From Victivallales bacterium (GTDB taxonomy: Bacteria > Verrucomicrobiota > Lentisphaeria > Victivallales > UBA1829), in contig JAZNVL010000060.1 in NCBI GenBank assembly GCA_045592785.1, positions 2,045-66,044 on the forward strand: a DNA stretch of 64,000 bases, in the 5' to 3' direction. Below, piece by piece: positions 3,245-22,375 of this stretch; within the stretch, counting starts at the first letter, position 1, and each line of letters opens with the position of its first letter. The notes beneath the pieces were generated by a model. It saw nothing but the letters and a program-made list of their open reading frames with translations, was not told where the DNA came from and did not search any database. Made by a program: the position numbers and the translations under genes.

Positions 3245-5293
3245 TTAATTTTTAACATAGGTAATACCAAAACTTTTGCAAGATCGATACTCCTGGAGAG
3301 AATTTTGCAACGCAAAAGTATTATTACCATCGTAGTTCTGGAAAATATCCAAGCCGCGCCCCAGAATTATTTTCCAACCGGTATCCGTGGTTATTTCCCG
3401 ATCATGAATGGTTTCATCAAATGTGTAACTGAAATGGATTCCAGCTGGCATTACCGATGTAGCAATCTGGTCAAAGAAGTCTATTTGTTTTTCAGAGCCG
3501 AAGTCATCTGCCACAGTAATGAGGTTAATGGTAATTTCTTCATCTGCAGCCTTTGTTTTGATTAATCCTTCAAACAGTTCCATAAGATTGCGGATTTGCC
3601 AGTAAGTACGCAGATACGGATCGACAATCGTTACTGTTCTTGCACCTTTGAGATGGGGAACCAGTAATTTTTCAAATGATACCCCTTTACAGTTTTCTTG
3701 AAAGGTCAAGTTACCTTCAAAAAGTTCTGCTGTTTCTGTGGATGTTACACTGACTTGCGTCAATACGGGTTGATTGGGGACATTGTTGTTCTGTCCACTG
3801 CATGTATCGTCTTCAATATCGTTTCCAGAGGAGTAATATTGTGGATATTCAGTTTCTTCCAACGTCTGTACCTTAAACGTTGTTCCCGCTTTGTCAAAAT
3901 ATTGAAATATCGGTTTTGAATAGGTATGGTCAAAACGCATGATCTGATCTTTTACCCGTTTTCTTCCTTCGACCGCAAATGACAATAATTGTGCTGTTTC
4001 TTCGGGAGTCGCATCATTATTCGGGAAAATGATTTTCATCAGACCGGACATCGTTTTCTGAACAGCATCTCTGTCGCGGGTTGAAATGGACGCATCAAGT
4101 GTAAAATACTTCTGATAATCGGCAGACCGGTCATCATCACGGAATGCTCTGAGAATTTCAGCCAGATAATCAACCACAAAACCGTACCCATCTGAAAACA
4201 TTTCGCCACGGATGATATCAACTTCCCATCCGGGAATGTAAAAGTGAATGCGGTCCAGAAATGCGGAGTCATGATATTCTTTGGGCAATTCATCAAATAA
4301 ATCTGAATTTTTAAGCATATACGGAACGCTGTGCTGCGTGTTGCCTACAAATATCATAGATGCTTCGGCACTCAATGTTTCCACGCCGCGAGAAAACGAT
4401 TTGTTTGCCATATAGTTTTTCATTATATCGACAAGACTCTTATTCGGCTTTTTCTGCTTCCCGGCAAATTCATCAAATGCGATGGCATCCCAATAGCCGA
4501 CCAGACCAAGTTTTCCATTGGAGTTATTTACAAATAATTTCGGAACGGTTACTTCTCCCCCGGATAACAAGATCCCGTGAGGTGAAAATTCCGAATAAAT
4601 GTGCGATTTACCAGTGCCTTTAGGGCCTAATTCAATCAGGTTGTAATTGCGCTCACAATAGGGAATAAGGCGCATTAACTGGAATAATTTATTGCGTGCA
4701 CCAAACATCTCCGGATTGAAACCCATACTTTGGATCAGCAGATCAATCCATTCCTCAGTCGAAAATTGTTTTCTTGATTCCAGATAAAGTTCCCGGTCGA
4801 AATAGGACAGCTGAATCGGCTTCAGTGATTCCAATACCCAGGGGCATTGCATTTTATCGTCAGAAGGCATATACTCCAATGCGGCTATACACCAAATGCC
4901 GTTAACCAATAATTTCGGATGACTTTTGATCGTCTCGGCTGGAACTAAGACCTTGCTGATTCCCAAGTTAGAAAAAGTTGCTTCGTAAACATCGGCTTTG
5001 TCATTCAGCGCAACACTGATTTTGTCAATGACTTTGTGTCTGCCTTTTTCCTTGATCGTAGACCGGATCAATCCTGCTTCATTCCGATGTACATAATGTT
5101 CCCGCAGAATGTTTTTGACAGATTCGATACCTGTTCGGATGGATTCTTCATCGCTCGTTGCGCAATATTGCCCAAGTAAATATTCAAGGACATACGTTGG
5201 CACAATGGCATTGCCTTTTACTTCCTTTACTAAATCTTTGCGAACTACAACGCCGGAAAAAGCGTTACAAATTTTTTTATCAAAGTCTGTCAT
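3245..5293 (-). CDS. brxL: BrxL-family AAA+ protein; C-terminal ~150 aa are MIT_C/PLD-like rather than a Lon protease domain
   Basis: The N-terminus MTDFDKKICNAFSGVVVRKDLVKEVKGNAIVPTYVLEYLLGQYCATSDEES closely matches the BrxL N-terminus as I recall it. Walker A is GPKGTGKSH. The C-terminus reads VTIVDPYLRTYWQIRNL...IHDREITTDTGWKIILGRGLDIF, and I saw no GxSxG/Ser-Lys Lon motif. Confidence 0.85.
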   Translation of the reverse strand: MTDFDKKICNAFSGVVVRKDLVKEVKGNAIVPTYVLEYLLGQYCATSDEESIRTGIESVKNILREHYVHRNEAGLIRSTIKEKGRHKVIDKISVALNDKADVYEATFSNLGISKVLVPAETIKSHPKLLVNGIWCIAALEYMPSDDKMQCPWVLESLKPIQLSYFDRELYLESRKQFSTEEWIDLLIQSMGFNPEMFGARNKLFQLMRLIPYCERNYNLIELGPKGTGKSHIYSEFSPHGILLSGGEVTVPKLFVNNSNGKLGLVGYWDAIAFDEFAGKQKKPNKSLVDIMKNYMANKSFSRGVETLSAEASMIFVGNTQHSVPYMLKNSDLFDELPKEYHDSAFLDRIHFYIPGWEVDIIRGEMFSDGYGFVVDYLAEILRAFRDDDRSADYQKYFTLDASISTRDRDAVQKTMSGLMKIIFPNNDATPEETAQLLSFAVEGRKRVKDQIMRFDHTYSKPIFQYFDKAGTTFKVQTLEETEYPQYYSSGNDIEDDTCSGQNNNVPNQPVLTQVSVTSTETAELFEGNLTFQENCKGVSFEKLLVPHLKGARTVTIVDPYLRTYWQIRNLMELFEGLIKTKAADEEITINLITVADDFGSEKQIDFFDQIATSVMPAGIHFSYTFDETIHDREITTDTGWKIILGRGLDIFQNYDGNNTFALQNSLQEYRSCKSFGITYVKN

Positions 5294-5304
5294 AGCAATT
5301 CACC

Positions 5305-7812
5305 TCAAAAATCCAGATCTACCAACTGACGGCGCAGCTGATATTTGCGGGTTAAATATTCGTTATAATAAGTCGTACCAGACTCAAGTTCAAGAAGCTT
5401 TAATATGATTTCCTGACCATTGTATTTTTCGGCATCGCGAGTCAATACCAAGCCGCAAGTCACTTCTCTGTCACGGGGTTCTTTGCTGGTCAAATCGAAG
5501 AATATTTCATGCTCATCAGAAATCAGCTTGTTATCTTGCGAGTAGAGACCCACTTTCAACTTCCGCGGCAGCAACTTTCCTTCTACCGGCTGCTGCTGAT
5601 AGAAACGTACCGCCATTTGACCGGATGTGATAACTTGCATACCGGAAATAATATCAATATCGACGTAAGAAAGATCCCCTTCGCGTTTTTTATTGATTTT
5701 CAATATCGGAACAACGATTTCCTGCAGTGAGGATCCACCATGCACAAAACGGCTGCCGGCTCCTTTGACTCTCAAACGATTGATGGATTTTGCGATTTGG
5801 ACTTCACAGTTCCCATTCATCTCAAGTGTTTCAAGATCGTATTTTTGCAGACCATCAACAGGGGTGAGATCTTTACCTATAACAAAGCGGCGATTCACCT
5901 TGCATACTTCTGACCCTTGTGGTTCCCCGGCCAGAAAGTCGTTAGTAGGTAATTCCCGGTTTTGATAGATGAAACCGTGATCTGCGGTGACGATAATATT
6001 TGTGGCATTGTATCCGGCCAGACGCTTTACCATCGCTATAATCTCTGTAACAGCATCTTCGATCGCTTCGCAAGTCTTTATTTCGGTTGACAAGTCATCG
6101 CCTGTTTCATCGATCGTATTGTGATAAATGTAAACGAGTTCATTTTCTTTTGCAAGGGTTCGACCTTCATCTCTTGTGAGATTCATCAGTTCACTGGCAT
6201 TCAGAACCGCTGATTTCGGAATTTTGCTGCTCAGGACTTTTGCTCTCGCTGCAGAACCAAGTGTGCTTAATCCATCGACTGTAACGGAAATATTATCGCC
6301 TTCGCCATTTAATTCTATCTTTGAATGAGGAAGCAATGCAGCCATCCCCAATGCTGTATAACTGGGGATCACACTGCAGGCGGCTTCCAACGTGGCGGTA
6401 TAACGATCCTCTAACATGATCTTGCGCTGCAATTCTTCTGCAATCTCGTAACGCAAAGCATCTGATATAATAACAAATACTTTCTTTTTCTCTACGGACA
6501 TCGGGACAATATTGTTGTTGAAAAATCTGTCCTGACGTTTCGCCCCCGGGATCGGCCATGTCTTATAGGCGGAAAGTCGGTCCTGCCAGAGATTGTTCAA
6601 TGGCAGGAGATAGTTGTTGGAATAAAAGTTTTCCACCAGATCGTAAAGTGCCTTAAGCAAATCGTTCTGATTCGCAGCATTCGCATGAAAAATAAATTTA
6701 CGGTACAATTGATCCAGTTGAAAATATTGTTTTGTGTAATTTTCGAAGCCGTTCGCAAGGGAATCCATCGTAATGGTCGTGGAACTCTGAAGACTCAAAA
6801 ACATCGATGCATAATCCAATGCCAGATACGCATGTTCCAATTTCTTGTACCAGAAGGTTTGACGGCGTTCCCGGATGATATTGGAACATTCAACGGCTGA
6901 AATCGTCCGGGAAATGATTCCTGATGCAAGATTCGTTAATATGTGTCGATCGATTTCCTTGAACAAATCCAGGGAACCGAGGTCGCTTAAATTGCGTTTC
7001 GCAAGATCTTCCACGATCGCATTCTGCAAAGTCTCTGCCACCATGGCTGAACATTTTTCAAATGAACTGCCGTATTGACGGCTGTCCTTGAAGCGTTTCA
7101 GAAATACCAGTGCTTCATCGTTCAGACGGATTTCAGACGGACAAGCGGTCGACAAGGTCATCAAATAACAGGCATGGAATAAACGGTAAGCAAAGTCTTT
7201 GACCGAGGGGGACTGTGAATGATACCCGTAATGTTCCGCTGCCTTTTTCCACAGAAAACCGCTTAAATTGTATTTTTCAATTTCTGTATACTTTGCATCA
7301 TCGCCTTCTGCGAGTTCCTGCAAAAGTCGTTCCAGGATCGAGTCCAGTCTGCGATCCACACCCACTGTCGCAGCAAGCATCTTCATGCGAATAGCGCCAT
7401 CGGAATCATGTTCTCCCAACAACTTCTTTAATGCCTGACGCCGTTTCGCAGATGTGAAAAATTGGGGATGCTCATCCGTGAGGAAGGCAAAACTGTAATT
7501 CAAACCCAGTTCGCTGAGCCAGAGAGATGCCTGATCCGCCTGGAATGTGTCGTAAGTCAGTTCCAAATTCAGCAGCCAGTTATCGCTGTCTTTGGGCGTT
7601 GGACCGGACGAAAAGACCAAAAAGCGTTTTCCTGGTTCAGCCTTTAATACCCGGTGCATGACCGCAAATTCATTGTTCTGGACTTCGATTTTTTCCACAT
7701 CGGGCAATTTTAATGCTTCAAATTCGTCATGCAGCTCACTCTTCGTATCGCGCCAGCAGACAATGCGACTCTTTTCAAATTTCTGCAGCAGGATTTTTTC
7801 GGTTGGTGTCAT
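5305..7812 (-). CDS. pglZ: PglZ (alkaline-phosphatase-superfamily BREX protein)
   Basis: 835 aa in the canonical position upstream of brxL. PglZ-domain region: VFVIISDALRYEIAEEL...TADHGF. Confidence 0.9.
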   Translation of the reverse strand: MTPTEKILLQKFEKSRIVCWRDTKSELHDEFEALKLPDVEKIEVQNNEFAVMHRVLKAEPGKRFLVFSSGPTPKDSDNWLLNLELTYDTFQADQASLWLSELGLNYSFAFLTDEHPQFFTSAKRRQALKKLLGEHDSDGAIRMKMLAATVGVDRRLDSILERLLQELAEGDDAKYTEIEKYNLSGFLWKKAAEHYGYHSQSPSVKDFAYRLFHACYLMTLSTACPSEIRLNDEALVFLKRFKDSRQYGSSFEKCSAMVAETLQNAIVEDLAKRNLSDLGSLDLFKEIDRHILTNLASGIISRTISAVECSNIIRERRQTFWYKKLEHAYLALDYASMFLSLQSSTTITMDSLANGFENYTKQYFQLDQLYRKFIFHANAANQNDLLKALYDLVENFYSNNYLLPLNNLWQDRLSAYKTWPIPGAKRQDRFFNNNIVPMSVEKKKVFVIISDALRYEIAEELQRKIMLEDRYTATLEAACSVIPSYTALGMAALLPHSKIELNGEGDNISVTVDGLSTLGSAARAKVLSSKIPKSAVLNASELMNLTRDEGRTLAKENELVYIYHNTIDETGDDLSTEIKTCEAIEDAVTEIIAMVKRLAGYNATNIIVTADHGFIYQNRELPTNDFLAGEPQGSEVCKVNRRFVIGKDLTPVDGLQKYDLETLEMNGNCEVQIAKSINRLRVKGAGSRFVHGGSSLQEIVVPILKINKKREGDLSYVDIDIISGMQVITSGQMAVRFYQQQPVEGKLLPRKLKVGLYSQDNKLISDEHEIFFDLTSKEPRDREVTCGLVLTRDAEKYNGQEIILKLLELESGTTYYNEYLTRKYQLRRQLVDLDF

Positions 7813-7817: not shown

Positions 7818-8837
7818 TTACCCCTGTCCTTCAGAAAGTTTTTTGATCACCTTATCAAAATCAGAAACAATGGGCTGTGTCCGATTGAATACATCATATT
7901 CCGCAGTCGCTTTGGCTTTTGCCTGTGACATGGAAATTTTACCTTTATCGCCATCCATAAGGATTTGATATTTGCGGAATGCCAGAAATTCATTGATACT
8001 TGCCGCAAATTCTTCCATTGTGAAGGTGTTTTCCCGTTCGATCAAATCTTCAATGTAATCAAAATAACCGGCGACTGTCCGTTCCAATTGACGGATTTCT
8101 TTTTCCTGTAAATAATTCTTGGCAATTGTCACATCTGTCTTCAGGATCCTGCCGTCCGGTGAATTCTTCCAGGTGACCAAACCCATGTGATCTTTATTCT
8201 TGTCGGCGTGAGTAAAAACGATTTCTGCGGCAGTCTGTCCTGTGATCGCAAAATGAAACTTGTTTTGCACCATGGCGTAAAAACTCCGGGTCAATTCCGA
8301 TTCCCTGTCATAATCAATGCTGCACTCCGCAAAAATATCGGTGATCTGCTGCCAGATGCGCCGTTCAGAGCTGCGGATGGAGCGGACTCGTTCCAGGAGT
8401 TCCCGGAAGTAATCTTTACCGAAAAGAGTTTTCCCCTGCTTGAGCCGTTCATCATCCATGGCAAAACCTTTGATCATATACTCTTTCAACACTCCGGTCG
8501 CCCAGATTCGGAACTGGGTGGCACGGCGGGAGTTGACCCGGTAGCCCACGGAAATGATTGCGTCAAGGTTATAATATTTCAGTTTGCGATTTACCTGCCG
8601 ATTGCCCTCCTGGCGAACTACCGAGATTTCCTCGGCAGTTGCATTTTCTGCCAATTCTCCATCTGCGTAAATGTTTTGCAGATGGAGAGATATATTGTCA
8701 GAAGTACAATCAAACAGTGTCGCCATTCCCTTTTGAGTCAGCCAAATGGTTTCATCTTTAACGGCGGCATCAATGCGGATATCTTCTTCCGGAGTACTGT
8801 ATATGATAAATTCAAGTCCATCAGGCATAATTTTCAC
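7818..8837 (-). CDS. RhuM-family (virulence protein RhuM / Fic-DOC-associated) protein embedded between pglX(C) and pglZ
   Basis: Typical RhuM family text: ...IWLTQKGMATLFDCTSDNISLHLQNIY...NLDAIISVGYRVNSRRATQFRIWAT.... The track start is GTG at 8837, overlapping the pglX(C) stop. An alternative ATG is at 8828. Confidence 0.75.
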   Translation of the reverse strand: MKIMPDGLEFIIYSTPEEDIRIDAAVKDETIWLTQKGMATLFDCTSDNISLHLQNIYADGELAENATAEEISVVRQEGNRQVNRKLKYYNLDAIISVGYRVNSRRATQFRIWATGVLKEYMIKGFAMDDERLKQGKTLFGKDYFRELLERVRSIRSSERRIWQQITDIFAECSIDYDRESELTRSFYAMVQNKFHFAITGQTAAEIVFTHADKNKDHMGLVTWKNSPDGRILKTDVTIAKNYLQEKEIRQLERTVAGYFDYIEDLIERENTFTMEEFAASINEFLAFRKYQILMDGDKGKISMSQAKAKATAEYDVFNRTQPIVSDFDKVIKKLSEGQG

Positions 8838-10828
8838 TCCTCCTTGGCTTCGAGACCGGGGATTTTTTTCAGGGCTGCGCCGAATTTACAATAGTTGACT
8901 TTTACGCCGTCGTCAAGGTCAATGGCGATCTTTTGCTGTGCCAGAGGGAAGATGACATCACGCTCGTAGTCTTCCAGTTCGGCGAGCTGAGCGGTGTATT
9001 TGTCGATCTGCTTCAAATTCCGGGTCTTATCGGCGTTGTTGATGTCGGTACGGTTGTTTTCTTCAATGAGGTGTTTGATGCGGGTGCTGATCTTGGTCAT
9101 CAACTCCCGGAGATATTCATTGAGAACGATGCTGACGGTATCAGGCGTGTAGCGGTGCAGATAGATCAGGGCATTGAAAGAACCTTTCGGAGAACTGAAA
9201 AGCCAGTAGATGGGGCGTTTTTTGTACCGTTGGATGTGTTCTTTGTAGAAATCCTTGACAAAGTATTTGCGGATATCTTTACCCAGCACCGCTTCAATAA
9301 AGTCCATATTGGCAGTGAGGTTTTCTTCTCCAAAGGTCAACGCAACAAAAGCTTTGAATTGAGTTACGATATCATCAAAGAACCATTCTTCATCCAGTAT
9401 CGGCAATATGCCATCCCGATCCATAATAAAGTGTTTATTCTCTCCGATAACGGGATAGAAAGAGGCATAAGACGATGTTAATTGCTGCTGTCCGTCATTC
9501 GCAGAAAATGAAACCATTGCTGGATCCTGCGAAAAAATATTTGAGCCAGTCACAGTTGTTTCATAGATAATCAGGTCTTCTTCCTGACCGTTGGATTGAT
9601 TGGCAAGGATCAAGCCTGATTTTTCAGGCGAGTATCTCCCCATCAAACAACCAACAGCGTAGGAGATGAATTCTTTGATCGTATCTGAAAGCAGCCTGTC
9701 TTCCAACTCTTTATTGTAAGGAAAATTCGCAGACAATACCGGATATGCTTCTGTGGTAGCAATACCATTGGAAGAACATTCGCAAATACTGTAAACATTG
9801 TCAATAACCTGCAACTGAGATTTTTCTCCTGTAACAGCTGAAATGTGCGAAATTGTAGATGTACTGGATTTATCAAGCGTTTTGCCATATCTGTACCACG
9901 GATTACAAGTCAATGTGATTTCATCCCAAGGCACGTCAGAAGTCAATTCATCCTGTAATCCATAAGCATCTATAAAAATGCGATTATTGCTCATTTCAAG
10001 CTGACGCATCTTTTCACAATCTTCAGTCCATTTTCTGCGGACTGAATCGTAAATACTCCAAATCGGAGTCTGTTTTACCCAACGGTCGCTATTATACTCT
10101 GCGATCAATGGATTTTTCTGAAAATCCCAAGAAGTTTCATAAGAATCCCAATTGTTTTTAGAAGATTTTACGCATTTTTCAGCATTACTTCCCGCGAAAT
10201 CAGCTACAGAGTCGCAAACAGGCAATCTTCCAACAACATCAGCACCAGTATTTATTGTTGGATTAATTGTTTCCAATGCGTAGTTAAATACTTTGGTGCT
10301 CATATAGGCAAGGTATTTCATCATTTCATTTGCATTATGTGGGAAAAGACTTGCTGCAGCATGATCAAATAAAAAACCTTTTCCATAATATCTGCAATGA
10401 AATTTTCCCGATGTAATAGCAGACCAACTTATTGCCGGACGGTAATATAAATCAATATATGTTGTCCTCGGGCGATGAAATAACGCAGATAGCCGCCATT
10501 TTATAATGTACTCGTTATCCCCATACCAACGTCTGAAATCGCCACCTTTTTTACAAGGGACATATTGTTTGTCTGATTTTTCAAACTCTTGGTTATTCGC
10601 AAAATTAAAAGCAATCTCTGAGCAATCGACCTCATACCAATAACGCATAAAGCGATCATTGTCTCCTGTCGATAATCCAGAACGGATTATTGCTAAATTT
10701 TCAAACTTTTTATTATTTGCAAAGCAATTTGTCAACTTTTCTGCCCAATACGCAATCGGGCTGCCGGGGATTTTCTTAAAATCCTCAGCAGACACGCGGA
10801 AAAAGTTTTTCGATTTATCTTTAGTCAT
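8834..10828 (-). CDS. pglX: PglX C-terminal half as a separate ORF
   Basis: Starts MTKDKSKNFFRVSAEDFKKIPGSPIAYW...GLSTGDNDRFMRYWYEV. In full-length PglX/Eco57I-like methyltransferases this segment directly follows the methyltransferase lobe. No methyltransferase motifs are present in this ORF. Its ATG overlaps the upstream stop (ATGA). Confidence 0.85.
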   Translation of the reverse strand: MTKDKSKNFFRVSAEDFKKIPGSPIAYWAEKLTNCFANNKKFENLAIIRSGLSTGDNDRFMRYWYEVDCSEIAFNFANNQEFEKSDKQYVPCKKGGDFRRWYGDNEYIIKWRLSALFHRPRTTYIDLYYRPAISWSAITSGKFHCRYYGKGFLFDHAAASLFPHNANEMMKYLAYMSTKVFNYALETINPTINTGADVVGRLPVCDSVADFAGSNAEKCVKSSKNNWDSYETSWDFQKNPLIAEYNSDRWVKQTPIWSIYDSVRRKWTEDCEKMRQLEMSNNRIFIDAYGLQDELTSDVPWDEITLTCNPWYRYGKTLDKSSTSTISHISAVTGEKSQLQVIDNVYSICECSSNGIATTEAYPVLSANFPYNKELEDRLLSDTIKEFISYAVGCLMGRYSPEKSGLILANQSNGQEEDLIIYETTVTGSNIFSQDPAMVSFSANDGQQQLTSSYASFYPVIGENKHFIMDRDGILPILDEEWFFDDIVTQFKAFVALTFGEENLTANMDFIEAVLGKDIRKYFVKDFYKEHIQRYKKRPIYWLFSSPKGSFNALIYLHRYTPDTVSIVLNEYLRELMTKISTRIKHLIEENNRTDINNADKTRNLKQIDKYTAQLAELEDYERDVIFPLAQQKIAIDLDDGVKVNYCKFGAALKKIPGLEAKEE
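10783..10828. repeat. Direct repeat copy 1 (functional 5' end of pglX(C))
   Basis: cctcagcagacacgcggaaaaagtttttcgatttatctttagtcat. On the minus strand it encodes MTKDKSKNFFRVSAE. Confidence 0.9.
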
Positions 10829-11853
10829 TTTAAATTACCCTCAGAAATATTTTTATTGATCCAAACAGGGGTATCTGAATACGTAATAGTTTGAGTCTCT
10901 CCATCTATGGATATGTTCTCTATTTCATGAAGAGATACTGAACTCGTATGGTTGCATTTGGAAATAATAGAAGCAACTTTTATCATGTCTGATAATGTGA
11001 TTTTTTTAGGTGGCATGATATCATATAAGTCTTTTCCTGCTCTTGTCAGACGATGCCCAGTTAAAACAATATCATACTTAGATACAATTTTTAAAACATA
11101 ACCTGTTCTGATAAAAAAGATGATATTATTTGAATTTTCAGCTTTTTTACATTGCCTTTCGGCTTTTTGAGGATTGATCAACTCCGCATCTTGTAAAGTC
11201 AAAATATCACTGAACGTACCAGTGGCAGGCTCATCTTCTGCGTTTGTCAACAAAAAGCCTTCACTAATACCAATATTCAATTTTTCAAATAATTGCGCTT
11301 CTTCCCGAGATAATTTCTTCGCCACTTCCAAGGTACGTGGCGAGATGGAATGCGGCTTTTTTGTTTCTTCAACCAACAAATGAGCCCACCATTGCCGCAA
11401 ATCATCATCGTCGATCAACTCAGCTTCAGCCCGCCAGCGATTGAAAAAGGTTTGGTTTATAGGATCTGAAGATATGTTTTCTTCCGGAATTTGTTTTATT
11501 TCAACGCCTGCCGTAAAAATTGCAGCAGCCAAACGTTTTGCTTTCAATATGGAATCTACATTTACAATTTCCCGGCAAAGCATGTCAATACTTGACACTT
11601 CTGGCAAAGAAATCATTTTTTTTGCCGCAATATCGTACCTTGAGATGCCATCTTTAATTTCAGAAGCATCCCTTTCTGCTTGTGCTTCAATTCGTTTAGC
11701 TTCTCCGATCCTTTTTTCAACCAAAGGACCATAAGCTGCATAAAGGATTTTTCCAAATCCCTTATGCGTATCTTTGGTCATCTCGGTAATATCTTCCGCA
11801 GGCTTAGTCAAATCAGCATTGATATCTATTTTAACAGGCGAAATATCACACAT
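10825..11853 (-). CDS. Abi-alpha / DUF2806-DUF4393-like protein (candidate abortive-infection component)
   Basis: The central segment FFNRWRAEAELIDDDDLRQWWAHLLVEETKKPHSISPRTLEVAKKLSREEAQLFEKL matches the pattern I recall for these families (...W..f...a..vsd..mq.lWa.iLa.E...p.s.S.rTl..l..Ls..eA.lF..l). The gene is AT-rich and is flanked by the 46-bp direct repeat. Confidence 0.55.
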   Translation of the reverse strand: MCDISPVKIDINADLTKPAEDITEMTKDTHKGFGKILYAAYGPLVEKRIGEAKRIEAQAERDASEIKDGISRYDIAAKKMISLPEVSSIDMLCREIVNVDSILKAKRLAAAIFTAGVEIKQIPEENISSDPINQTFFNRWRAEAELIDDDDLRQWWAHLLVEETKKPHSISPRTLEVAKKLSREEAQLFEKLNIGISEGFLLTNAEDEPATGTFSDILTLQDAELINPQKAERQCKKAENSNNIIFFIRTGYVLKIVSKYDIVLTGHRLTRAGKDLYDIMPPKKITLSDMIKVASIISKCNHTSSVSLHEIENISIDGETQTITYSDTPVWINKNISEGNLK

Positions 11854-11905
11854 TTTTAGCCTCCGCCGACACCCGGAAAAAGTTTTTCGATTTATCTGTG
11901 GTCAT
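11846..11905 (-). other. 19-codon relic ORF (MTTDKSKNFFRVSAEAKNV*) bridging the 343-aa gene and the Abi-alpha-like gene
   Basis: Its ATG overlaps the upstream stop (ATGA at 11902-11905). Its TGA (11846-11848) lies 3 nt inside the next gene, whose ATG is at 11851-11853. The relic therefore preserves translational coupling. Confidence 0.6.
11860..11905. repeat. Direct repeat copy 2 (orphan duplicate of the pglX(C) 5' end)
   Basis: cctccgccgacacccggaaaaagtttttcgatttatctgtggtcat. 41 of 46 nt are identical to copy 1. On the minus strand it encodes MTTDKSKNFFRVSAE. Confidence 0.9.
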
Positions 11906-12933
11906 TGTTGTTCCTCGCGAATTTCAACATTGTATGCGACTCCGAATTTCGGAGGTTCATTATTAACTTCCTTTTTCTCAACGAGCGGTTCCCATTCAAA
12001 TATACTTTGCTGCCACATTACATCCGGAGCTGAAATTTTATTCTCGCTTATCCATAATGCAACATCCCTATAAATCAAATGTGAAATTCTAGAGGCCTTT
12101 GATAATATTTGTAATATTATCCCATTGAGTGAAAAGAGAATGAAAGGAAGCTTGTCTTTATTCAAGTATATTTCATTAACTTTTTTTCGCAATTCATCTT
12201 TTTTAATATTTTGAGGACCATGCAAAATAAGAGTTCCGTATTGAAAAATTTCTATAAGTTCTTTGTTCGTTGTTGCAAAATTTTGTGTAATTGATTGATT
12301 TGGAGCTTCCTGTAAAAAATCATTTATCTCCCGCACCTTATTCTTTAAAAAATCTTGCTTTTCAGAATTTGATGAATGTTTCTTAAATATATTGACTGCA
12401 TTTTTTATCATATTGTCATGATCGTCTATCAGTTGCCGAATATATAACAAGGCAAAAGCGGTCAGTTCTAATGATGGGAAATCACCGCGAGCCAAACCGT
12501 CTCCATTCATATTGTACTGAAGTATCGGTTTGTTTTTGTACCATGAACTATTTTGAATAACTTGTACAAGTTGGATAAAATGTGCAATGATATCAGATTC
12601 CTGTTGCGTCATATCTTTTCCAGTAGCATCTTGCTTATATGGATTGTTTAGATTATATATGTACTCCTCCATAGTAATCATTCTTTCCATATATCCGTCT
12701 TCATAGCAACGAAAAAGCTGCCCATTTTTATCTTTCAAAATAATACAATGCATTGCTTCACAATAAGAAATCAACGAATCCGGAGAACCATTTTCATCAT
12801 ATAACACTGCAAATTCATATCCATCTGGAATAGTAAATTTTTCTTGCATTAAGGTTTTCCATGTATCAATGCGTTCGCAACTGTTATCATTTTGCTTTTT
12901 ATATTCCTCTTCAGAAGATATATTGATATTCAT
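11902..12933 (-). CDS. Hypothetical protein, 343 aa, no domain recognised
   Basis: Long AT-rich ORF with 4-nt overlaps to neighbours on both sides. I recognise no motif. Confidence 0.6.
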   Translation of the reverse strand: MNINISSEEEYKKQNDNSCERIDTWKTLMQEKFTIPDGYEFAVLYDENGSPDSLISYCEAMHCIILKDKNGQLFRCYEDGYMERMITMEEYIYNLNNPYKQDATGKDMTQQESDIIAHFIQLVQVIQNSSWYKNKPILQYNMNGDGLARGDFPSLELTAFALLYIRQLIDDHDNMIKNAVNIFKKHSSNSEKQDFLKNKVREINDFLQEAPNQSITQNFATTNKELIEIFQYGTLILHGPQNIKKDELRKKVNEIYLNKDKLPFILFSLNGIILQILSKASRISHLIYRDVALWISENKISAPDVMWQQSIFEWEPLVEKKEVNNEPPKFGVAYNVEIREEQQ

Positions 12934-14228
12934 TTTCTATTCCCCTGCTCTTTACCTGATGATAAAAAGTTCTTCCTTAAGGCGATTTCTAATTCTTCGA
13001 TTTGCTTTTTCAAAGCAGCAATTTCAGCATAAAGTTTTTGTTTTTCCAGTGCGAATCCAGCAGTGGCAGCATTATATTTCTTTTCCAATCCGGAAAGAGT
13101 ATCCTGTGCTTTTTTCAAATCTGCCTGCAAGCGGTTTGTTTTCTGCATAAGTTTTACATCATCTTGTGAAACTATGGTACCTTTTTCTAATGCGACTTTC
13201 ACATTACTTGATTTTTCTATATGAATTTTAGGGGAACAAAAAGATTTGTTTTGCAAAATTTCAATAATTTTTTCATGGTTATCGGTACAATAATCAAAAA
13301 TTGCAAGTCCAATTTGTACAATAACACCAACAAAGGCAATACCAATCGCAACATATGACAAATTCGTATTTTTCTTGGCGTCAACTTTAGATGCTTTAAA
13401 ATTATTTTGAGATGCGGTAAGTAACTCATTTACCGTATTGCCATTTTTTTCTGCAGTTCTTACTTGTTCCGCAATTTTGTCATTGTTTTCTTTAGCTTTA
13501 TCTACCAATTTTTCAATATTTTTCTGCGTCAATTGAGACGCATTGAGCAACTTACCTGCATTTTCATCAAATTTAGCTAAAAACATAGACAATGTAGCAT
13601 TAATATCAGAAGTGTCTTGCTGTATCTTAGAAAAAGCAATCTCATCCGCCTTTAGTTCCGTTTTTTTCCGTAATTCACGAAAAGCTTCTTGTTCTTCCGG
13701 TTCATTCTTCTTTATTTTTTCTGCAGTTTCTTTCAATTCCTTCAAATCATGCCGGAGAACATTGTCTTCTTCATTTTCTTCTACAGAACTTGAATTGGAA
13801 AACTCTTGTTCAGCATTGATGGCCTCTTGAATATTCTTTTGATAATCTATAACCGTACTAGACAATGCGGCGTTGCATAATGCATCTCCCATTCTTTTGT
13901 ATGCAGCTATCGTCTCTTGCATCACATGGGGAGCTGCAAGAACTTTATTTACTTGTTGTTGAATTTTAGAATAATTTTGAAACAACTTTTGACGGATTTC
14001 ACTATCAACGGCACTAAGCAAGTTACAAGAGTTTTTTAATTTTTCATTCAAGCTGATTACTGCTTTTATTGCCTCTGGATTCCTTATTTGTTCCAACTTG
14101 GCTTGCATATTAGTTTTTTCACGGTAAAGGTTATGCAATGGATTATTATTGATTTTAAGGCTAGTCATACTTTTTTTATTCTCTTTTTGAGAAGAGGATT
14201 CTGTGTTTTTTTTATTTTCTTCACTCAT
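12930..14228 (-). CDS. Membrane-anchored coiled-coil protein, 432 aa
   Basis: One hydrophobic helix (LSYVAIGIAFVGVIVQIGLAIF), flanked by long K/E/Q-rich heptad-like stretches, e.g. the C-terminal LQADLKKAQDTLSGLEKKYN...AEIAALKKQIEELEIAL. A GGAAG lies upstream of the ATG. Confidence 0.6.
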   Translation of the reverse strand: MSEENKKNTESSSQKENKKSMTSLKINNNPLHNLYREKTNMQAKLEQIRNPEAIKAVISLNEKLKNSCNLLSAVDSEIRQKLFQNYSKIQQQVNKVLAAPHVMQETIAAYKRMGDALCNAALSSTVIDYQKNIQEAINAEQEFSNSSSVEENEEDNVLRHDLKELKETAEKIKKNEPEEQEAFRELRKKTELKADEIAFSKIQQDTSDINATLSMFLAKFDENAGKLLNASQLTQKNIEKLVDKAKENNDKIAEQVRTAEKNGNTVNELLTASQNNFKASKVDAKKNTNLSYVAIGIAFVGVIVQIGLAIFDYCTDNHEKIIEILQNKSFCSPKIHIEKSSNVKVALEKGTIVSQDDVKLMQKTNRLQADLKKAQDTLSGLEKKYNAATAGFALEKQKLYAEIAALKKQIEELEIALRKNFLSSGKEQGNRK

Positions 14229-14243
14229 TGTGTTGCTTCCTGA

Positions 14244-15287
14244 TTATGATTTTTTTATGACAGCGGTCTCTTTTGCTAACTCGGTTTCCAATTGCTCAAT
14301 TGATGGAAGAGATGATTTCAGATTTTCTGGAATAGATCGGGTCAATTCGTACTCTGAAATCCCGATTGGTTTATGAATATCCTGCAACGCATATTCTGCA
14401 ACAACTTTGTCTTTTGTCTTACAGAGTAAAAGTCCTATTGTCGGAGCATCCTGTTCACTCTTCAATTGACGATCAACTGCTGTTACATAAAAACTCAGTT
14501 GCCCGATATGCTCAGGCTTGAATGCCGCTGTTTTTAATTCAATAACAATGTAACAATGTAATTTGATATGATAGAACAGTAAATCTACATAAAAGTCTTG
14601 CTCTCCAACTTCTAAATGTACCTGTTTTCCTACAAAAGCAAAACCATCCCCCAATTCCAACAGAAAATTTGTTACATGTTGAACCAGAGCATGTTCAATA
14701 TCCCGTTCCTGAGCTTCCTGTCCTAATCCGAGAAAATCAAGTTTATATGGATCTTTCAAACACTCTATTGCCAAATCCGATTGTGGCGCAGGTAAGGTCA
14801 TAGAAAAATTGTTGGCTGCCTGTCCGATCCTTTTTGCCGTATCAAGTTCAATGTGGTGAACCATTGCATTGCGCGACCAACCATTTTTTACAGCAAGGCT
14901 CGCATATACAAGACGTTCTGATTTTTTAGAAAGTTTATCAAGTAAAGTTACCTGGTGATACCATGGCAATTGTCCAAGCGGCTCTTGGACAATTTCTGCT
15001 TCCGTCCAAGCCGCAGCAAATCCTCTCATATACATGAGGTTCGCCCGCGAAAAACCTTTCATTTCCGGAAAGGCGGTCCGCAAATCGTCTGCAAGGCGTG
15101 TAATTACTTTTGCGCCCCATCCTTGCATCTTTTGCCGTTCTAAAATTTCATGTCCAATTTGCCAATACAAACGGATAAGTTCAAGATTTACCGCTCGGGC
15201 TGCCTGTAGTTGAGTATTGGCAATTCGCTGTTTTAAATCGGATAACCATTGACTGTAATCTGAACTGATAAAATTAAAATCTTTCAT
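14244..15287 (-). CDS. DUF1016 / YhcG-like PDDEXK nuclease
   Basis: Family-typical N-terminus: ...LKQRIANTQLQAARAVNLELIRLYWQIGHEI. PD-(D/E)xK core: FYVDLLFYHIKLHCYIVIELK. Its ATG overlaps the pglX(N) stop. Confidence 0.8.
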   Translation of the reverse strand: MKDFNFISSDYSQWLSDLKQRIANTQLQAARAVNLELIRLYWQIGHEILERQKMQGWGAKVITRLADDLRTAFPEMKGFSRANLMYMRGFAAAWTEAEIVQEPLGQLPWYHQVTLLDKLSKKSERLVYASLAVKNGWSRNAMVHHIELDTAKRIGQAANNFSMTLPAPQSDLAIECLKDPYKLDFLGLGQEAQERDIEHALVQHVTNFLLELGDGFAFVGKQVHLEVGEQDFYVDLLFYHIKLHCYIVIELKTAAFKPEHIGQLSFYVTAVDRQLKSEQDAPTIGLLLCKTKDKVVAEYALQDIHKPIGISEYELTRSIPENLKSSLPSIEQLETELAKETAVIKKS

Positions 15288-17221
15288 CGTACCGCCTCCC
15301 GGAACATTGCGGCTTTTTCGGCTTCGTTGTTGCCGTCAACCAAACGGATGAAGGCTCCTTTGTAATCAGGGATGAGCGTATTGGTCATGGTAAAGGCTGT
15401 GGTCTGTACTACTTCGCCGCCGATGGAGTCAAAACCTCTGGCTCCCAAGTGCGCCATTGACAGAATGGTATTTTCATCCAGCAGTTTTGTCCGCAGTTTT
15501 TCAAAGGAAGAGAGAAACATCCAACTCTGCATAGTGATCATACCAATCGTTCCCTGATGCTGCACCAACTCCAAACACCGTTCAATAAACATGGCAAAGA
15601 GGTCGGATTTACTGTCGGAATAAAATCTTTCTGCAAAGCGTTTCAAGTCTGCATTCATACCTTTGCCGCCCATGTACGGGGGATTGGTCACTACTACATG
15701 GTATTTCTGTGAAAGATAGTCCGCCTGACAAAGCACTTTTTGAAGATTTTTATACTCTGCATCTTCAAAAAGTAAGTGATTAGTGGTTAGTGACCAGTTG
15801 TCAGAAGATTGCGAATAGCGATCAGAAAAGTATTCAGACAAAGCCATAAGTTTTTCGGATGAAAGTTTGGGGTGCAGCAAAGACCCCATGCAATCCGCTT
15901 TATCAAACATATTTATATCATGCAAGAAATCATCTGATTTACATCCAACTTGCTTACACGCTTCCTCAAACTGACCACTAAACACTGACCACTGACCACT
16001 GAAATTCTCCAGCACGCAAATCTGCGGGCGTGGAGAATTTTCTCGCCGCAGGAATCGGCTGTCATATTCTCTGGCTTTCATCGTCAGAGCAAATGCTGCC
16101 AGTTCTCCGGCTCGGGTGTCGATTTCCACTCCATGCAGATTTTTGAGCAATATCAGTGTTGGGATCTTCCGGCGGTCGTAGCCCTCTTCCTCATAAATTT
16201 TGACCAATAGATCAAAGGCATAGGTCAACATGTGTCCAGAACCGCAGCACGGATCGCAGATGCGAATTTCTTCCGGCGAAGAAATTTTTAAGTGGCTAGT
16301 GGCTAGTGTCCAGTGGTCAGATTTTTGCTGATTACCAGCCACTTCCCCATCACTAACCACTGCCCACTGATCACTGCCCACTTTTCCATCACTAGCCACT
16401 GAACACTGATCACTATCCACTGGAATATAGTATTCCATTTCGTCCGCTAACTTGGAGTTGGGGTGGTTGAGCATCCACAACCGTCCCAGAGAATTCTGCA
16501 CCAGATACCGCACGATCCAATCCGGCGTAAACAACTGGGTCGCCGCCGGAATGTCTTCGGTCTTGACGGTTTTGCCCATTACTTCATCTTTTTTTTCGGA
16601 AATATAGAACTGATAGAGCCATCCGATGACTTCCACGCCGTCCGCAGCCACATCTTCGGTAATGGCATCACGGGTCTTCATGAGTATAGAGTTCTCTTTC
16701 ATCAAATCATCGGGTAGCAGCAGCTCCGTATAATCATCGATTTTCTGAAACAGAAACGGCATCACCTTATTATAAGCGTTACACGCCGAAACCAGCAGCA
16801 GCTTATAGGCTTCAGCCTGACCATCTACCGCAGGGATTGAACCATCCAGCAATCCCTTGATACGCGTCCGATATTTGGAGTCGGCTACAAATGTTTCATC
16901 AATATTGCCGCCTTTGGCTTCTTCAAGGATCTCCGGCTGAAAATGCCCCGGCAAGGGCGAAACAATGCGAATGGAGTTATACCCCATCACATCCATAAAA
17001 CGCAATGCACAGAACCGGTTGAACCAAGTGTAAGCGATTTTATCGATCAACGCTTCATCGCCCAAGGCTTTGCGTGTTTTTTCCAATTCTGCCACAGCCT
17101 GCGGCTTTTCACGGCGGGCAGCACTGTTTTCAGCCAGCACCAACGGCAGAAGAGCCTTGACGATCTTCTGCAACTCCCGGCGGGCATCCTGGGCAAATCT
17201 TTTCAACCGATTCGTATCCAT
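15284..17221 (-). CDS. pglX: PglX N-terminal half (N6-adenine methyltransferase lobe) as a separate ORF
   Basis: Motif I: ICDPCCGSGHML. Motif IV: VVTNPPYMGGKGMN. The PglX-like N-terminal helical region (...WFNRFCALRFMD...) is present. The ORF ends just before the segment that pglX(C) begins with. Confidence 0.9.
   Translation of the reverse strand: MDTNRLKRFAQDARRELQKIVKALLPLVLAENSAARREKPQAVAELEKTRKALGDEALIDKIAYTWFNRFCALRFMDVMGYNSIRIVSPLPGHFQPEILEEAKGGNIDETFVADSKYRTRIKGLLDGSIPAVDGQAEAYKLLLVSACNAYNKVMPFLFQKIDDYTELLLPDDLMKENSILMKTRDAITEDVAADGVEVIGWLYQFYISEKKDEVMGKTVKTEDIPAATQLFTPDWIVRYLVQNSLGRLWMLNHPNSKLADEMEYYIPVDSDQCSVASDGKVGSDQWAVVSDGEVAGNQQKSDHWTLATSHLKISSPEEIRICDPCCGSGHMLTYAFDLLVKIYEEEGYDRRKIPTLILLKNLHGVEIDTRAGELAAFALTMKAREYDSRFLRRENSPRPQICVLENFSGQWSVFSGQFEEACKQVGCKSDDFLHDINMFDKADCMGSLLHPKLSSEKLMALSEYFSDRYSQSSDNWSLTTNHLLFEDAEYKNLQKVLCQADYLSQKYHVVVTNPPYMGGKGMNADLKRFAERFYSDSKSDLFAMFIERCLELVQHQGTIGMITMQSWMFLSSFEKLRTKLLDENTILSMAHLGARGFDSIGGEVVQTTAFTMTNTLIPDYKGAFIRLVDGNNEAEKAAMFREAVR
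15775..16001. repeat. Inverted pair of heptamer-periodic patches inside pglX(N)
   Basis: Plus strand 15775-15804: AGTGATT AGTGGTT AGTGACC AGTTGTC AG. Plus strand 15971-16001: CTGACCA CTAAACA CTGACCA CTGACCA CTG. They are translated in frame as SDNWSLTTNHL and SGQWSVFSGQ. Confidence 0.85.
16291..16423. repeat. Second inverted pair of heptamer-periodic patches inside pglX(N), just upstream of motif I
   Basis: Plus strand 16291-16320: AGTGGCT AGTGGCT AGTGTCC AGTGGTC AG. Region 16336-16423 is an array of NNNCCAC-type heptamers containing a 39-nt tandem duplication (VDSDQCSVASDGK / VGSDQWAVVSDGE). AGTGGCTAGTG (16291-16301) is the exact reverse complement of 16390-16400. Confidence 0.85.
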
Positions 17222-17239
17222 AAAAGTTTTATCTCCTTA

Positions 17240-20200
17240 TCAAAGTTGGATCCGCTTGCCGGATTTAAGTTTTTCCTGCAGATCTTTGCGGAGTTTTTCC
17301 AATTCACTCTGCCACAGAGCCATATATTCAGCAAGGTCTTCTTCGCTTTCCAGCCACGGTTTGCTGAAACTGACTTTCGCTTTGGGCATCGGAACGGATT
17401 CAATGGGCTTTTCTTCTACCACAGGATGTGCCAATGTGTAAAGTTGTTCCAGAAGTTTTTTGTAACGTTCATTTTCGAATTTTTGTAATCTTCCCTGAAC
17501 GCTGTAAATACTGTTCTGAGCATTGATATCCTCAAGGTTTTCAGAAAAGACAGCAAGCAACGCAGTTTGCTGCGCAGTATCCAGTAATGCGAAATCCGGT
17601 TTTTGTTTGAATTCCAGCTGCAAGTTTTCAATGCGTTTGTGACTGCAATCAATCTCATTGCGCAGAAGCTCGTTGAGCTGTTTTGTCAATAATTCCGTCA
17701 ACTCTTTCAAGCGATTCATCCGATTGCCTTTGAAGCAGTGCGGAGAACTCAATATATCTTCAAATTCCCGACGTTCTGCAACAAGGACATCCGACGGGAA
17801 ATCTATGTAGTTGTGCCGCTGAAAGTTTTTTGCTGTATCAAAAATCTCTTTTGCGTTGCCAGTCATGAAGGATATAACCGGATCGATACAGTCTTCTTTA
17901 TCATCGCACAGCACATCCAGATCACCCGGTTTACATTCGGTGAAGAAATATGCGGCAGGTTTACTTGCAAATTTTTTCAATCTGAGGAGCGGATCCAGCA
18001 ATTCACCCTGGAAAGGATAATGGCTGCGTGTGGCGTTATAGCCTTCCAAGGTCGCCACAAGCTCTTTCAGCTTCCGGATCAGGTCATTACCCAACTGCTT
18101 TGGATCTTCTGCATTGGCCGGTTCCTGGAAGTAGTCGACGTAGAATTCCTTGACACGTTTGACCTGATGGGGTTCGTAGTCCAATTGCAGTTCCAGCGTA
18201 ACGTTATCATGACAATGAGAGTTTTTCAGAGCTGCGATCTGTTTTTCTGCATCAAGCAGTTCTCCATCGGACCGCATTTCCAATTTATTACGGATCGACA
18301 GTTGTGCAAGCAGACAGAAGATCGCCGCATCATACCAGCCATAGGGACGGGCGGAGAGTTTATCTTTCAGGCTTTTAAGCGTTGTTCTCAACCCATTGTT
18401 TTTATTGGCGCGCAGTAAATTGAGGATCTCAGTTTCGGCTTCAGACAAGGTTGGAGAAAACAGGTTCGGGGTTGCATTCCGGTAATATGCAGGAATATTG
18501 TTTTCTGTGTATGGCGTGCCTTCAATCATTTTGAGGTTTGGATAGATCGTCTGGATCAACTCCTGGCATCCGCTTATGATCAATTGTTTTGCATTTTCGC
18601 TTTTCAGTTCACAAACACGCCCGTTGATAAAAAATTGGGCTTGGGAGATGAGTGATTCCGTGCGGACTTTGATCTCACGTTCTCTATCCCGGTTACCGAT
18701 CATTTTGTTATCCAGAATGCGTCTGATATTTTCGTTTTGCGTGTTGCCGTTCAGTTTTGCGTACTTTTCCGTTCTCAGCAGAAGGGTGACATCGACCATT
18801 AAACGGGAGTCAGAAGGCAATACGATAAACAGTTCCGCTTTGCCCATAGATTCCGTTAAGAATTCATCATACCGATACGATTCCTGCCATGGTGTAATAA
18901 CATGAATCGCCAGTTCCCGTTCCGCATTGAGATTGCGTCCATCCATTTTTTTACAGAATGTGTAATCATAGCCGGTCGTGACACAGCGGACTTTCATACC
19001 GCCGATGATCTGTTCAAAGATGATCTTGTTTAATATTTCCAAAACATCTGCGGTATCGATTGCTGTATTTTTGATTTCTTTTTCGATATCCTGTTCTTCA
19101 TCGGTCAGGTATTCGTAATATTCACCATTGCGCTGGATATAGGACTGGCTTTCCAGTTTATTGAGGGATTCCTGAACTCTTTTCAACAAATCCGGAGCGT
19201 TTTCAGCAAATGATTCCCGCATCAGCACTGTCATATTGCGTGCCGTAGCCCGGAACGTCCGTACATATTTGACCAGGAACAGAGTTTTCAATGTCCGGAT
19301 GGTGAATATATCATCCGGCATTTGATTTTCTGCCGTATGAATCGCCCGTACCGCATTGGATTTTACGGAATGCCTGATCCCCTCATACATCAAGTCAAAA
19401 GGTGCAATGCAGCCAAGCTCTTTTGATGCAAGATTTTTTGCAACCTCCTGAAATACTCCCAGCATAGAACGTTCCCCTACAGAATTGTGACGTCCTTCAA
19501 AAATGTTGTGTTCAGACAGATTCTGAATTGCGGTCTGGAACAACCCGAATTGATACGGGATAAAGGGATAACAGGAAATAAAATCCTGAGCATCCGTAAA
19601 ATTCTTGTAGACCGTTGCGCCGTCTGTAAAGTTGAACAGAGTCTTGAAGTTGTTGCTTTGTTCCGCATAGATCTTGTTCAGTTGTGGTACAAAGTCGTCC
19701 TTCTTAGCCAGCAGACGTTTGCGGATTACTTCATCGACGTTGGCACTGGTCAATTTCAATCTGTTTGCAAAACGGGCCTGGATCTTTGAAAAGTCGTTGC
19801 CTTGTTTTTTGCCGATTTCACCGAAAACGCTGGTCATATCTTCCTGGGCTGTCACAATGATCCATGCCTGACCACGGCAAACGGTAGCAAGTTCTTCTGC
19901 CAAACTTTGCAGATTGAGCATCAATTGGGTATTGTCTGCAATATACTGTCCCACTTCATCGACAAAAAAGTTCAAACGGAATCCTTTCGGTTGTTTATCG
20001 ATGTAGGACTTTATCATTTTTGCGAAATCTTCAATCGAAAGGTTATAGTCCTTACGATATTTATCGATGATCCCGTTTGCCGTTTCCACCGGTTCGCCGG
20101 AGACTTCAGCATAGGCCTTTGCAATATTGCGTCCTTCCAGGATGGCTTGTGTTCTCCCCTTATCCCAAGTTTTTTTGGATATGTTCTGGAATGCGTCCTT

Positions 20201-21950: not shown

Positions 21951-22218
21951 ATTTATTTCTCTTGGTTACAATCTATCAAGAGCCATCAGTTACAGCTGTC
22001 TCCTGAAATTCATTTTGCTGTTTATTATATATTTTAGAGTAATATAAATGCAGAAAAGAAAAAGTCAATATTTTTAATCCCGAAAAGATTTAATTTTTTC
22101 AGATAAAGTCTGTAAAAATATGCTTAAATATGATTTTTTCTATTTTGTACAGGATTGAGCAACCGTTTTTCCTGTGTCAAGTGTACGGGGAAGGGGCCTG
22201 CTGCTGTTTGGCAAAGAA

Positions 22219-22257: not shown

Positions 22258-22375
22258 CTGGGGGATAATGCTGTGGTTGTCTGATAAACTTATCAGAGGG
22301 ACTAAAGAAAAAAAATAACGTTTTTCATTGCGAATGGTTTATATATTACCTCGGTGAGATAAGCTCTGATCGGAT

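Follow-up and report, generated by a model that had tools for sequence, protein, structure and literature searches.

A type 1 BREX operon with PglX encoded as two halves on either side of a slot for cargo genes

A 64,000-nucleotide stretch of a Victivallales bacterium (contig JAZNVL010000060.1 of assembly GCA_045592785.1; hereafter, the window) carries a bacteriophage exclusion (BREX) operon whose methyltransferase gene, pglX, is interrupted by four other genes, which raises the question of whether this pglX is a broken gene or an enzyme made in two parts. The type 1 operon is complete and occupies the minus strand from 21950 to 3245 (brxA-brxB-brxC … pglZ-brxL); all six core genes are present, co-oriented and matched over their full length, with pglX present as two open reading frames (ORFs). 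The initial annotation had described these as separately initiated halves about 4.4 kb apart and had taken them for a functional two-subunit PglX rather than a dead gene. Data from the present analysis support this view through recurrence of the split, a conserved junction, purifying selection, invariant motifs, exchange of recognition regions and an empty slot. Thus, the split pglX is probably functional by design rather than broken, and we consider it likely that the window represents a widespread lineage of type 1 BREX in which PglX is made as two polypeptides that reassemble into the equivalent of a single chain, and in which the slot between their genes carries exchangeable cargo.

The first half, pglX-N (15284-17221, minus strand, 645 aa), starts with ATG and encodes the N-terminal helical bundle and the gamma-class N6-adenine methyltransferase domain (MTD). 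It matches the PglX models PDLC02521 and NF033452 and Pfam Eco57I, N6_Mtase and MmeI_Mtase, and it contains both DPCCGSGH (motif I, the S-adenosylmethionine site) and NPPY (motif IV). The second half, pglX-C (8834-10828, minus strand, 664 aa), has an ATG of its own, reads DNDRFMRYWYEV in its early part and encodes the hinge motif, the target-recognition domain (TRD), spacer helices and the C-terminal domain (CTD), with matches to PDLC02521, NF033452 and residues 639-1215 of Salmonella PglX. The two are separated by 4455 nt holding four genes, with a stop codon and a separate ATG between MTD and TRD.

On the PADLOC PglX model PDLC02521 (1174 positions), the N half covers positions 1-619 and the C half 620-1173; the corresponding stretches on NCBIfam NF033452 (1210 positions) are 1-645 and 650-1209, with both halves above its cutoff of 500 bits. 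Since each half alone passes this naming cutoff, annotation pipelines call both ‘PglX’. PADLOC also includes half-length PglX models, of 607 and 593 positions, that rank with the top matches of both halves and gave a first hint of a recurrent split. Against the solved PglX/BrxX chains (E=1.5e-124 for the N half and 1.9e-93 for the C half), the N half aligns up to residue 632 of Escherichia coli BrxX, with eight further residues following (∼632-635 over the solved chains overall), and the alignment of the C half begins at Salmonella PglX residue 639. Because profile and structure alignments run end to end without overlap or loss, the halves are complementary and not duplicates, and jointly they cover the full domain set (N-terminal domain, MTD, TRD and CTD). 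The first reading of the sequence, with the whole methyltransferase lobe in one ORF and the contiguous remainder of PglX in the other, is therefore borne out. Its estimate that the two add up to about one PglX also holds, as their sum is 1309 aa versus 1174-1225 aa for single-chain PglX, and the surplus consists of in-frame repeat insertions in the N half and of insertions in the C half.

In E. coli BrxX numbering, the break falls at about residue 636-640, within a short linker just where the hinge loops start. Drobiazko et al. assigned residues 211-650 of BrxX to the MTD, 651-837 to the TRD and 638-675 to ‘flexible hinge loops’ (PMC11842806), and Went et al. placed the hinge of Salmonella PglX at residues 654-659 (PMC11341690), which in the alignment is PGMPIA of the conserved IPGxPIAYW motif. 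The break is located 13-18 residues upstream of this latter hinge and at the start of the BrxX hinge loops, so that the C half includes the hinge and the ∼15 upper-lobe residues before it. Hence, the initial placement of the break between the two lobes is right to within ∼15 residues, but the cut lies upstream of the hinge and leaves it in the C half. In split relatives, the junction reads …SEAEKxxMxxxAIxQ-stop on the N side and M…(ME)K(Y/N)FFR(A/V)… on the C side, and a separate start codon opens the C half in all split loci examined; fused relatives read through via a 6-residue linker of the NPNCGW type.

Both halves keep intact frames, and the coupling to their neighbours that had been noted at first is found at each end. 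ATGA overlaps occur at 15284-15287 (N half and the YhcG-like gene), 12930-12933, 10825-10828 (DUF2806 gene and C half) and 8834-8837 (C half and RhuM-family gene), and the remaining intergenic gaps in the operon are 5-48 nt. A scan of the operon for promoters and terminators gave 43 promoter-like sites versus 46 expected, and no convincing internal terminator on the minus strand.

If the break were an accident of this genome, it would not be expected elsewhere at the same residue. The best 120 database matches per half were considered. Almost all N-half homologues (62-97% identity, from a collection of 5.8 billion proteins) are 587-647 aa long and end at the same residue, and almost all C-half homologues are 600-690 aa long with 100% coverage. 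The closest named genome match is a fragment of a Victivallaceae metagenome-assembled genome (MAG; locus L085, 93% identical). In a scan of genomes (one genome per species, best 80 loci), 18 loci show this split and contain both halves, 1.3-5.2 kb apart, and ∼50 are fused; the split loci belong to Gamma- and Betaproteobacteria, Actinomycetes, Kiritimatiellae, Victivallales and Melainabacteria, and among the carriers are the cultured strains Pseudomonas oleovorans DSM 1045, P. mandelii 6A1, Halopseudomonas oceani DSM 100277, Zoogloea oleivorans Buc and Massilia pinisoli JCM 31316. Among the best 80 metagenome loci, 37 are split, 20 are fused, 6 run off the contig, and in 17 the N half stops at the junction and the sequence lacks a C half, the contig mostly ending soon after. 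Taking homologues and scans together, the same break is seen in hundreds of loci from many phyla, and it comes with a conserved junction in dozens of distantly related ones.

We also asked how the split and fused states are distributed over neighbour-joining trees of 117 distinct N regions. The state requires 10-12 changes on the protein body and 5 changes on the last 80 columns, compared with ∼39 changes when states are shuffled. These trees indicate that the state is strongly inherited without being monophyletic, and that split forms group more tightly by junction-proximal sequence; this fits a spread of the junction by recombination, with convergence as the alternative.

The 4.4-kb gap in the window is one instance of a general cargo slot, which goes beyond what the initial annotation had recognized. 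Slot content, slot ends and cargo orientation were counted over 59 split loci. The halves lie 0.2-5.4 kb apart. The slot holds one to four genes, nearly all co-oriented and in modular combinations dominated by known defence families: the UG5 reverse transcriptase (RT)-nitrilase in 17 loci, HEC-02 A+B in 17, SIR2+HerA in 14-16, an SLFN_AlbA_2/HATPase_c_4 protein in 13, an AAA_15/21 ATPase with a small partner in 6 and Shedu SduA in 4. Further families are Dsr2, SoFic, Helicase+DUF2290, PDC-S22 (KilA-N) and DUF6119, and several others match no family. The slot begins with the ATGA of the N-half stop and closes a few nucleotides short of the ATG of the C half. Of the 59 loci, 53 have [A/G/T]TGA as the end of the N half, and in 34 of the 59 the first cargo ORF starts at that ATG, whatever the cargo. 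Co-orientation and the mostly translational coupling of cargo suggest that it is expressed together with BREX. Two plasmid matches, H1 and H5, are contrast cases and not further examples, as their pglX is fused; in H5 the cargo lies between pglX and pglZ.

Comparison of the window with its closest relatives, which differ from it only in cargo and TRD, locates both edges of the slot. DNA homology to locus L001 ends exactly at 15284, the N-half stop, within the ATGA overlap of 15284-15287 (minus strand) that forms the left edge with the start of the first cargo gene, and it resumes at 10832, 4 nt before the C-half ATG. The right edge is an anchor of the first 28 pglX-C codons plus 4 nt upstream (10744-10832, minus strand), which we call the C-head, with 92-96% DNA identity to L001 and L087 compared with 77-85% elsewhere. 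In L001 and L002, the N half is 95% identical to that of the window over aligned residues and an RT occupies the slot, while L087 and L088 have a 422-aa protein and a DUF2806 gene there. In one locus (L107, 11801-12014) the slot is empty: the ATGA is followed by 208 nt with no coding-strand ORF and then, before an intact 591-aa C half, by a sequence resembling a ribosome-binding site, GGGAGAAGG, and by GGGAGAAGGCAGATG. Loci L120, L140, L155, L165 and L166 hold 3′ remnants (85-237 aa) of RT-nitrilase or HerA genes beside the C half together with different current cargo; this record of cargo replacement suggests that cargo is replaced from the upstream side and that the segment adjoining the C half is kept. 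A group II intron or mobile-RT origin of the split was considered and rejected, as the RT of the relatives is the UG5 RT-nitrilase defence gene and the window has no RT.

Purifying selection acts on both pglX halves. The ratio of non-synonymous to synonymous substitution (dN/dS) of the N half is 0.09-0.12, and that of the C half 0.14-0.29 when compared with the window and L001, over synonymous divergence that reaches saturation (dS up to 2.8); values of 0.46-0.51 occur only among the TRD-swapped C halves of L003, L005 and L006. DPCCGSGH and NPPY are invariant among 11 aligned N halves, and 33 diverse C halves have many invariant residues in common, including the hinge motif and C-terminal motifs.

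The variable part of pglX-C is its target-recognition region (∼aa 29-270; 10019-10743, minus strand), which is only 15-45% identical to that of relatives with flanks of 90-100% identity. In L003, L005 and L006 (C halves at 14760-16760), N halves and RTs are identical, and so are the first 28 and last ∼300 residues of the C halves (100%), whereas the TRDs are only 15-40% identical. This pattern is one of cassette-like TRD exchange, as in specificity switching of hsdS. Because selection on specificity would be pointless in a dead gene, diversification of TRDs beside identical N halves argues that the enzyme works.

An AlphaFold2 (AF2) model of the C half matches PglX/BrxX structures in the lower lobe (E=7.5e-27), and its next-best matches are the DNA-recognition domains of M.BseCI, CamA and M.TaqI, not HsdS. 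Residues 1-26 of the isolated model have low pLDDT, which would be consistent with a segment that folds against a partner.

The cargo of the window itself also records how the slot is filled. Gene 1 (14244-15287, minus strand) encodes a YhcG-like PD-(D/E)XK nuclease (DUF1016) of the PADLOC candidate family PDC-S02 (YhcG_C E=3.3e-66, DUF1016_N E=1.5e-39, PDC-S02 E=1.3e-156). Gene 2 (12930-14228, minus strand) encodes a 432-aa protein without Pfam, PADLOC or NCBIfam match, predicted from its coiled coils and one hydrophobic segment to be a coiled-coil membrane protein. Gene 3 (11902-12933, minus strand) encodes a 343-aa protein of no family, and gene 4 (10825-11853, minus strand) a 342-aa DUF2806/Abi_alpha-like protein (DUF2806 E=2.1e-14; Abi_alpha E=1.7e-6, below its cutoff; weak PDC-S47). 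Genes 3 and 4 are probably one module, since a homologue of the gene 3 product, the 42%-identical 422-aa protein, is also paired with a DUF2806 gene in the slot of L087 and L088. We rejected the 432-aa protein as a conserved partner of the 343-aa protein outside BREX, because it has no similarity to the neighbour in L090. The GC content of the cargo is 0.32-0.37 versus 0.43-0.47 in the flanks, which points to recent acquisition.

Between genes 3 and 4 lies a fossil of the pglX-C 5′ end (11860-11906, minus strand), an 89% direct repeat of 10783-10829 that is identical to the C-head of L001 over 46 nt. It forms a 19-codon mini-ORF bridging the two genes: its ATG overlaps the TGA of gene 3, as at the real junction, and its stop overlaps the start of the DUF2806 gene. 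Thus, gene 3 was once the last cargo gene, and the DUF2806 gene came later with a new C-head. The fossil is direct evidence of stepwise cargo accretion at the C-head anchor; a search of the other 58 split loci gave no comparable fossil.

Two further features were observed within the N half. Heptanucleotide (GGTCAGT-type) and 39-nt repeats, in frame and partly mutually complementary, are located at 16290-16421, 15970-16002 and 15775-15793, in loops of the methyltransferase half, and encode SDQWAVVSDG, SGQWSVFSGQ and SDNWSLTTNH. Their copy number differs in the relatives P0007 and P0014, and 592-aa relatives are without them; a change of one unit in a 7-nt array would shift the frame, so that phase variation is possible. 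In P0020, P0047 and L056, the last ∼90 residues of pglX-N exist in an alternative version (…CHMA–NMVMGIAFGTSA…FCFVEYEDIENSKPVEFPP…) in place of the usual segment (…AHLGARGFDSIGGEVVQTTAF…RLVDGN…), a mosaic within the N half of otherwise close relatives.

The best reading of these sequences is a working two-subunit PglX, comparable to HsdM plus HsdS. Single-chain PglX/BrxX (E. coli HS BrxX, PDB 9EWZ/8ZEK; Salmonella PglX, PDB 8C45/8Q56) has the same domains in the same order and the same operon partners; the experimentally characterized proteins are single polypeptides, whereas here the gene is cut at about BrxX 636-640 and yields two. As in Type I systems, catalytic and specificity subunits would come from separate adjacent genes, and specificity varies by TRD exchange. 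The analogy with M and S subunits drawn at first therefore holds for the architecture but not for descent: HsdS has two TRDs with central and distal conserved regions, and PglX-C, a homologue of the C lobe of PglX, combines a single TRD with a BREX-specific CTD. Moreover, there is no HsdR here, and restriction would be carried out by the BREX machinery.

In the model that we propose, PglX-N and PglX-C would associate into a heterodimer equivalent to single-chain PglX. The C-head, i.e. the first ∼28 residues of PglX-C, probably docks on the methyltransferase lobe of PglX-N, because by homology it belongs to the methyltransferase lobe and hinge. Characteristically, PglX of type 1 BREX places m6A at a non-palindromic 6-bp site and is needed for phage exclusion. 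The heterodimer would recognize and methylate the BREX site and cooperate with BrxBC, PglZ and BrxL as usual, and translational coupling would ensure that cargo is made together with the BREX proteins. Cargo and TRD cassettes would each be swapped by homologous recombination anchored in three conserved stretches, namely the N-tail, the 90-nt C-head and the C-terminal region.

Several points weigh against this model. Association and activity of the two halves are what we infer for every split locus. Went et al. failed to express the C-terminal domain of Salmonella PglX alone (PMC11341690), and stand-alone C halves may need adaptations; the AF2 model of the C half is of moderate quality only (pLDDT 64.9, pTM 0.41). 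Both locus scans were seeded with a split-type sequence, so prevalence is overestimated, and only about 5-8 of the best 150 representatives of 50%-identity clusters end at the junction. In both scans several N halves have no C half within reach, and one locus, L153, is decaying, its C half having been truncated by opposite-strand ORFs and lacking the first ∼50 residues. Its order (11821-20086) is Shedu, SIR2 and HerA cargo, then two opposite-strand ORFs of 344 and 173 aa, then the truncated C half.

An extension of the model is that the split is maintained as a docking site that couples cargo function to the state of PglX, which we consider unlikely. As a speculation, co-translated effectors such as nucleases, RT-nitrilase, SIR2-HerA, Shedu and the pair of genes 3 and 4 might perhaps be kept inactive by the assembly of PglX-N with PglX-C, and cargo might fire when a DNA mimic of the Ocr type sequesters the C half or disrupts the heterodimer, in the way that PrrC guards EcoprrI. 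If so, a free C half would permit exchange or sharing of specificity subunits.

Alternatively, both halves might be functional without forming a joint enzyme, with PglX-C as a free site sensor for restriction with BrxC, PglZ and BrxL, and PglX-N in another role or with another partner, e.g. the cargo. In single-chain PglX, C-terminal mutations can uncouple modification from restriction (PMC12707154), and PglX alone is inactive in vitro and requires other BREX proteins (PMC11341690, PMC12707154); in addition, RT cargo adjoins the methylase half, and methylase-RT fusions are known in UG25 and UG35 (PMC9226505). However, site recognition by BrxX involves residues of both MTD and TRD around one flipped adenine (PMC11842806), so that a methyltransferase lobe without TRD would have no specificity. 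Moreover, intact loci invariably contain both halves in the same order, with any cargo and even with none, and the C-head conserved in all split forms corresponds to the stretch by which the two lobes are joined in solved structures. We therefore hold separate roles to be improbable.

A dead pglX would mean that a low-GC foreign cassette was inserted and inactivated BREX, and that the two ORFs are remnants yet to decay. The GC contrast between cargo and flanks does suggest horizontal acquisition, and degenerate loci such as L153 exist. Yet the identical break with its conserved junction recurs in several phyla, frames are intact, dN/dS remains at 0.09-0.29 over saturated synonymous divergence, TRDs diversify beside identical N halves, and the halves are intact around the empty slot of L107. 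Precise start/stop coupling and the integrity of all other BREX genes likewise speak against decay, and neither a transposase gene (Pfam and PADLOC scans) nor repeats flanking the whole cargo (repeat search) were found. Inactivation is accordingly very improbable, and the two-subunit enzyme remains the preferred reading.

Conditional regeneration of a single-chain PglX by cargo excision, inversion (phase variation) or recoding is hardly credible: pglX is a known target of programmed inversions and is split differently in Brevibacterium casei (PMC9881135), and the heptanucleotide repeats of pglX-N and the 47-nt direct repeat within the cargo could be seen in this light, but Pfam and PADLOC detect no recombinase gene in or beside the slot, the 64-kb window has no second or inverted pglX copy beyond a 15-codon fossil in direct orientation, no repeats flank the whole cargo, the 47-nt repeat brackets the DUF2806 gene alone, so that recombination across it still leaves three cargo genes, the stop codon and a separate start, every split locus examined has its own C-half start codon, and L107 keeps stop, 208-nt spacer and new start even with an empty slot. 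Excision-type reconstitution was rejected for the wrong positions of the repeats and the missing second copy.

The other genes of the operon, all on the minus strand, are of the usual kind. Upstream of pglX-N are brxA (21351-21950; Pfam BrxA, E=2.4e-46), brxB (20749-21354; Pfam BrxB, E=2.1e-39) and brxC (17240-20737, 1165 aa), which matches PADLOC BrxC PDLC02479 over its full length (residues 3-1165 to 2-1172 of 1172). Downstream of pglX-C are a RhuM-family gene (7818-8837; Pfam Virulence_RhuM E=3.2e-105, PDC-S05 E=3.7e-157), pglZ (5305-7812; PADLOC PglZ PDLC02547, E=2.1e-274, full length) and brxL (3245-5293; PADLOC BrxL PDLC02508, 1103 bits, full length). The RhuM-family gene is a second and more stable embedded gene, found clade-wide between pglX-C and pglZ with dN/dS of 0.05-0.08; it has the same position in L001 (16742-17755), L003 (16688-17716) and L087 (13756-14784), and in L087 an extra 240-aa gene without family match lies between pglX-C and RhuM. 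The stretch between brxA and 23143 (21950-23140) has no clean ORF and a jump in GC skew, and contains at 22376-22410 (plus strand) a hairpin with a 16-bp stem followed by a T-rich tail. Genes for tRNA-Tyr and tRNA-Gly (25486-25570 and 25596-25669, minus strand) are located 3.5 kb upstream of brxA, and a boundary of the BREX island may lie near this ORF-poor and tRNA stretch.

Among gamma-class N6-adenine methyltransferases related to MmeI and Type IIG enzymes, the TRD may be fused or separate; in Type IIB, BcgI (A2B) has a separate specificity subunit and its relatives AloI and CjeI are fused. These are cleaving restriction-modification (R-M) enzymes that have neither BREX partners nor a slot for cargo. 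Goldfarb et al. in 2015 reportedly described irregular or disrupted pglX genes.

Defence genes embedded in BREX, DISARM, Type I R-M and Hma operons were described by Payne et al. 2024 (bioRxiv 10.1101/2024.01.29.577857); BrxU in pEFER is another such case. The window has embedded genes of this kind, PDC-S02, the DUF2806/Abi_alpha-like protein and PDC-S05. Accessory genes embedded in Type I operons, such as that for the anticodon nuclease PrrC in EcoprrI, are treated in the same preprint and are a further resemblance to Type I systems. As there, the genes are co-oriented and nested, and the families recur (PDC-S02, PDC-S05, HEC-02, Shedu, SIR2-HerA). In contrast to those cases, where embedding is between genes, the site described here is inside a normally single gene at one conserved residue position; the text of Payne et al. 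mentions neither PglX nor a split.

A split PglX of Brevibacterium casei (Milman et al. 2023, PMC9881135) also consists of two consecutive coding sequences and was read as functional. There, the break follows the variable (TRD) region, separating N-terminus plus middle from C-terminus, and is tied to recombinase-driven inversions; here it precedes the TRD, with no recombinase and with defence cargo between the halves. MAGs of Regnicoccus frigidus, of another lineage, probably provide the same kind of observation, which Panwar et al. 2022 (PMC9716671) read as interruption and loss of function, without analysis of break point, conservation or cargo. According to a 2025 review, the TRD of BREX is integral to the methyltransferase, unlike in Type I systems (PMC12707154), and the terms ‘split’, ‘fission’ and ‘truncated’ do not occur in a large survey of BREX diversity from 2026. 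Judging from the searchable literature, split PglX is implicit in hidden Markov model libraries and annotations but has not been presented as a conserved architecture of two subunits and a cargo slot.

The BREX methyltransferases studied so far are all single chains, and a two-subunit PglX would mean that catalysis and recognition can reside in lobes synthesized apart from each other. Many loci read as having a ‘truncated’ or duplicated pglX would then be re-annotated as intact systems, and a natural two-subunit PglX would be a template for engineering BREX specificity by subunit swap. The recurrent, exactly placed slot is a compact place to mine new defence genes, as several of its cargo families have no annotation. 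It also offers a tractable case for deciding whether embedded defences share no more than expression with the host system or are also linked to it in mechanism.

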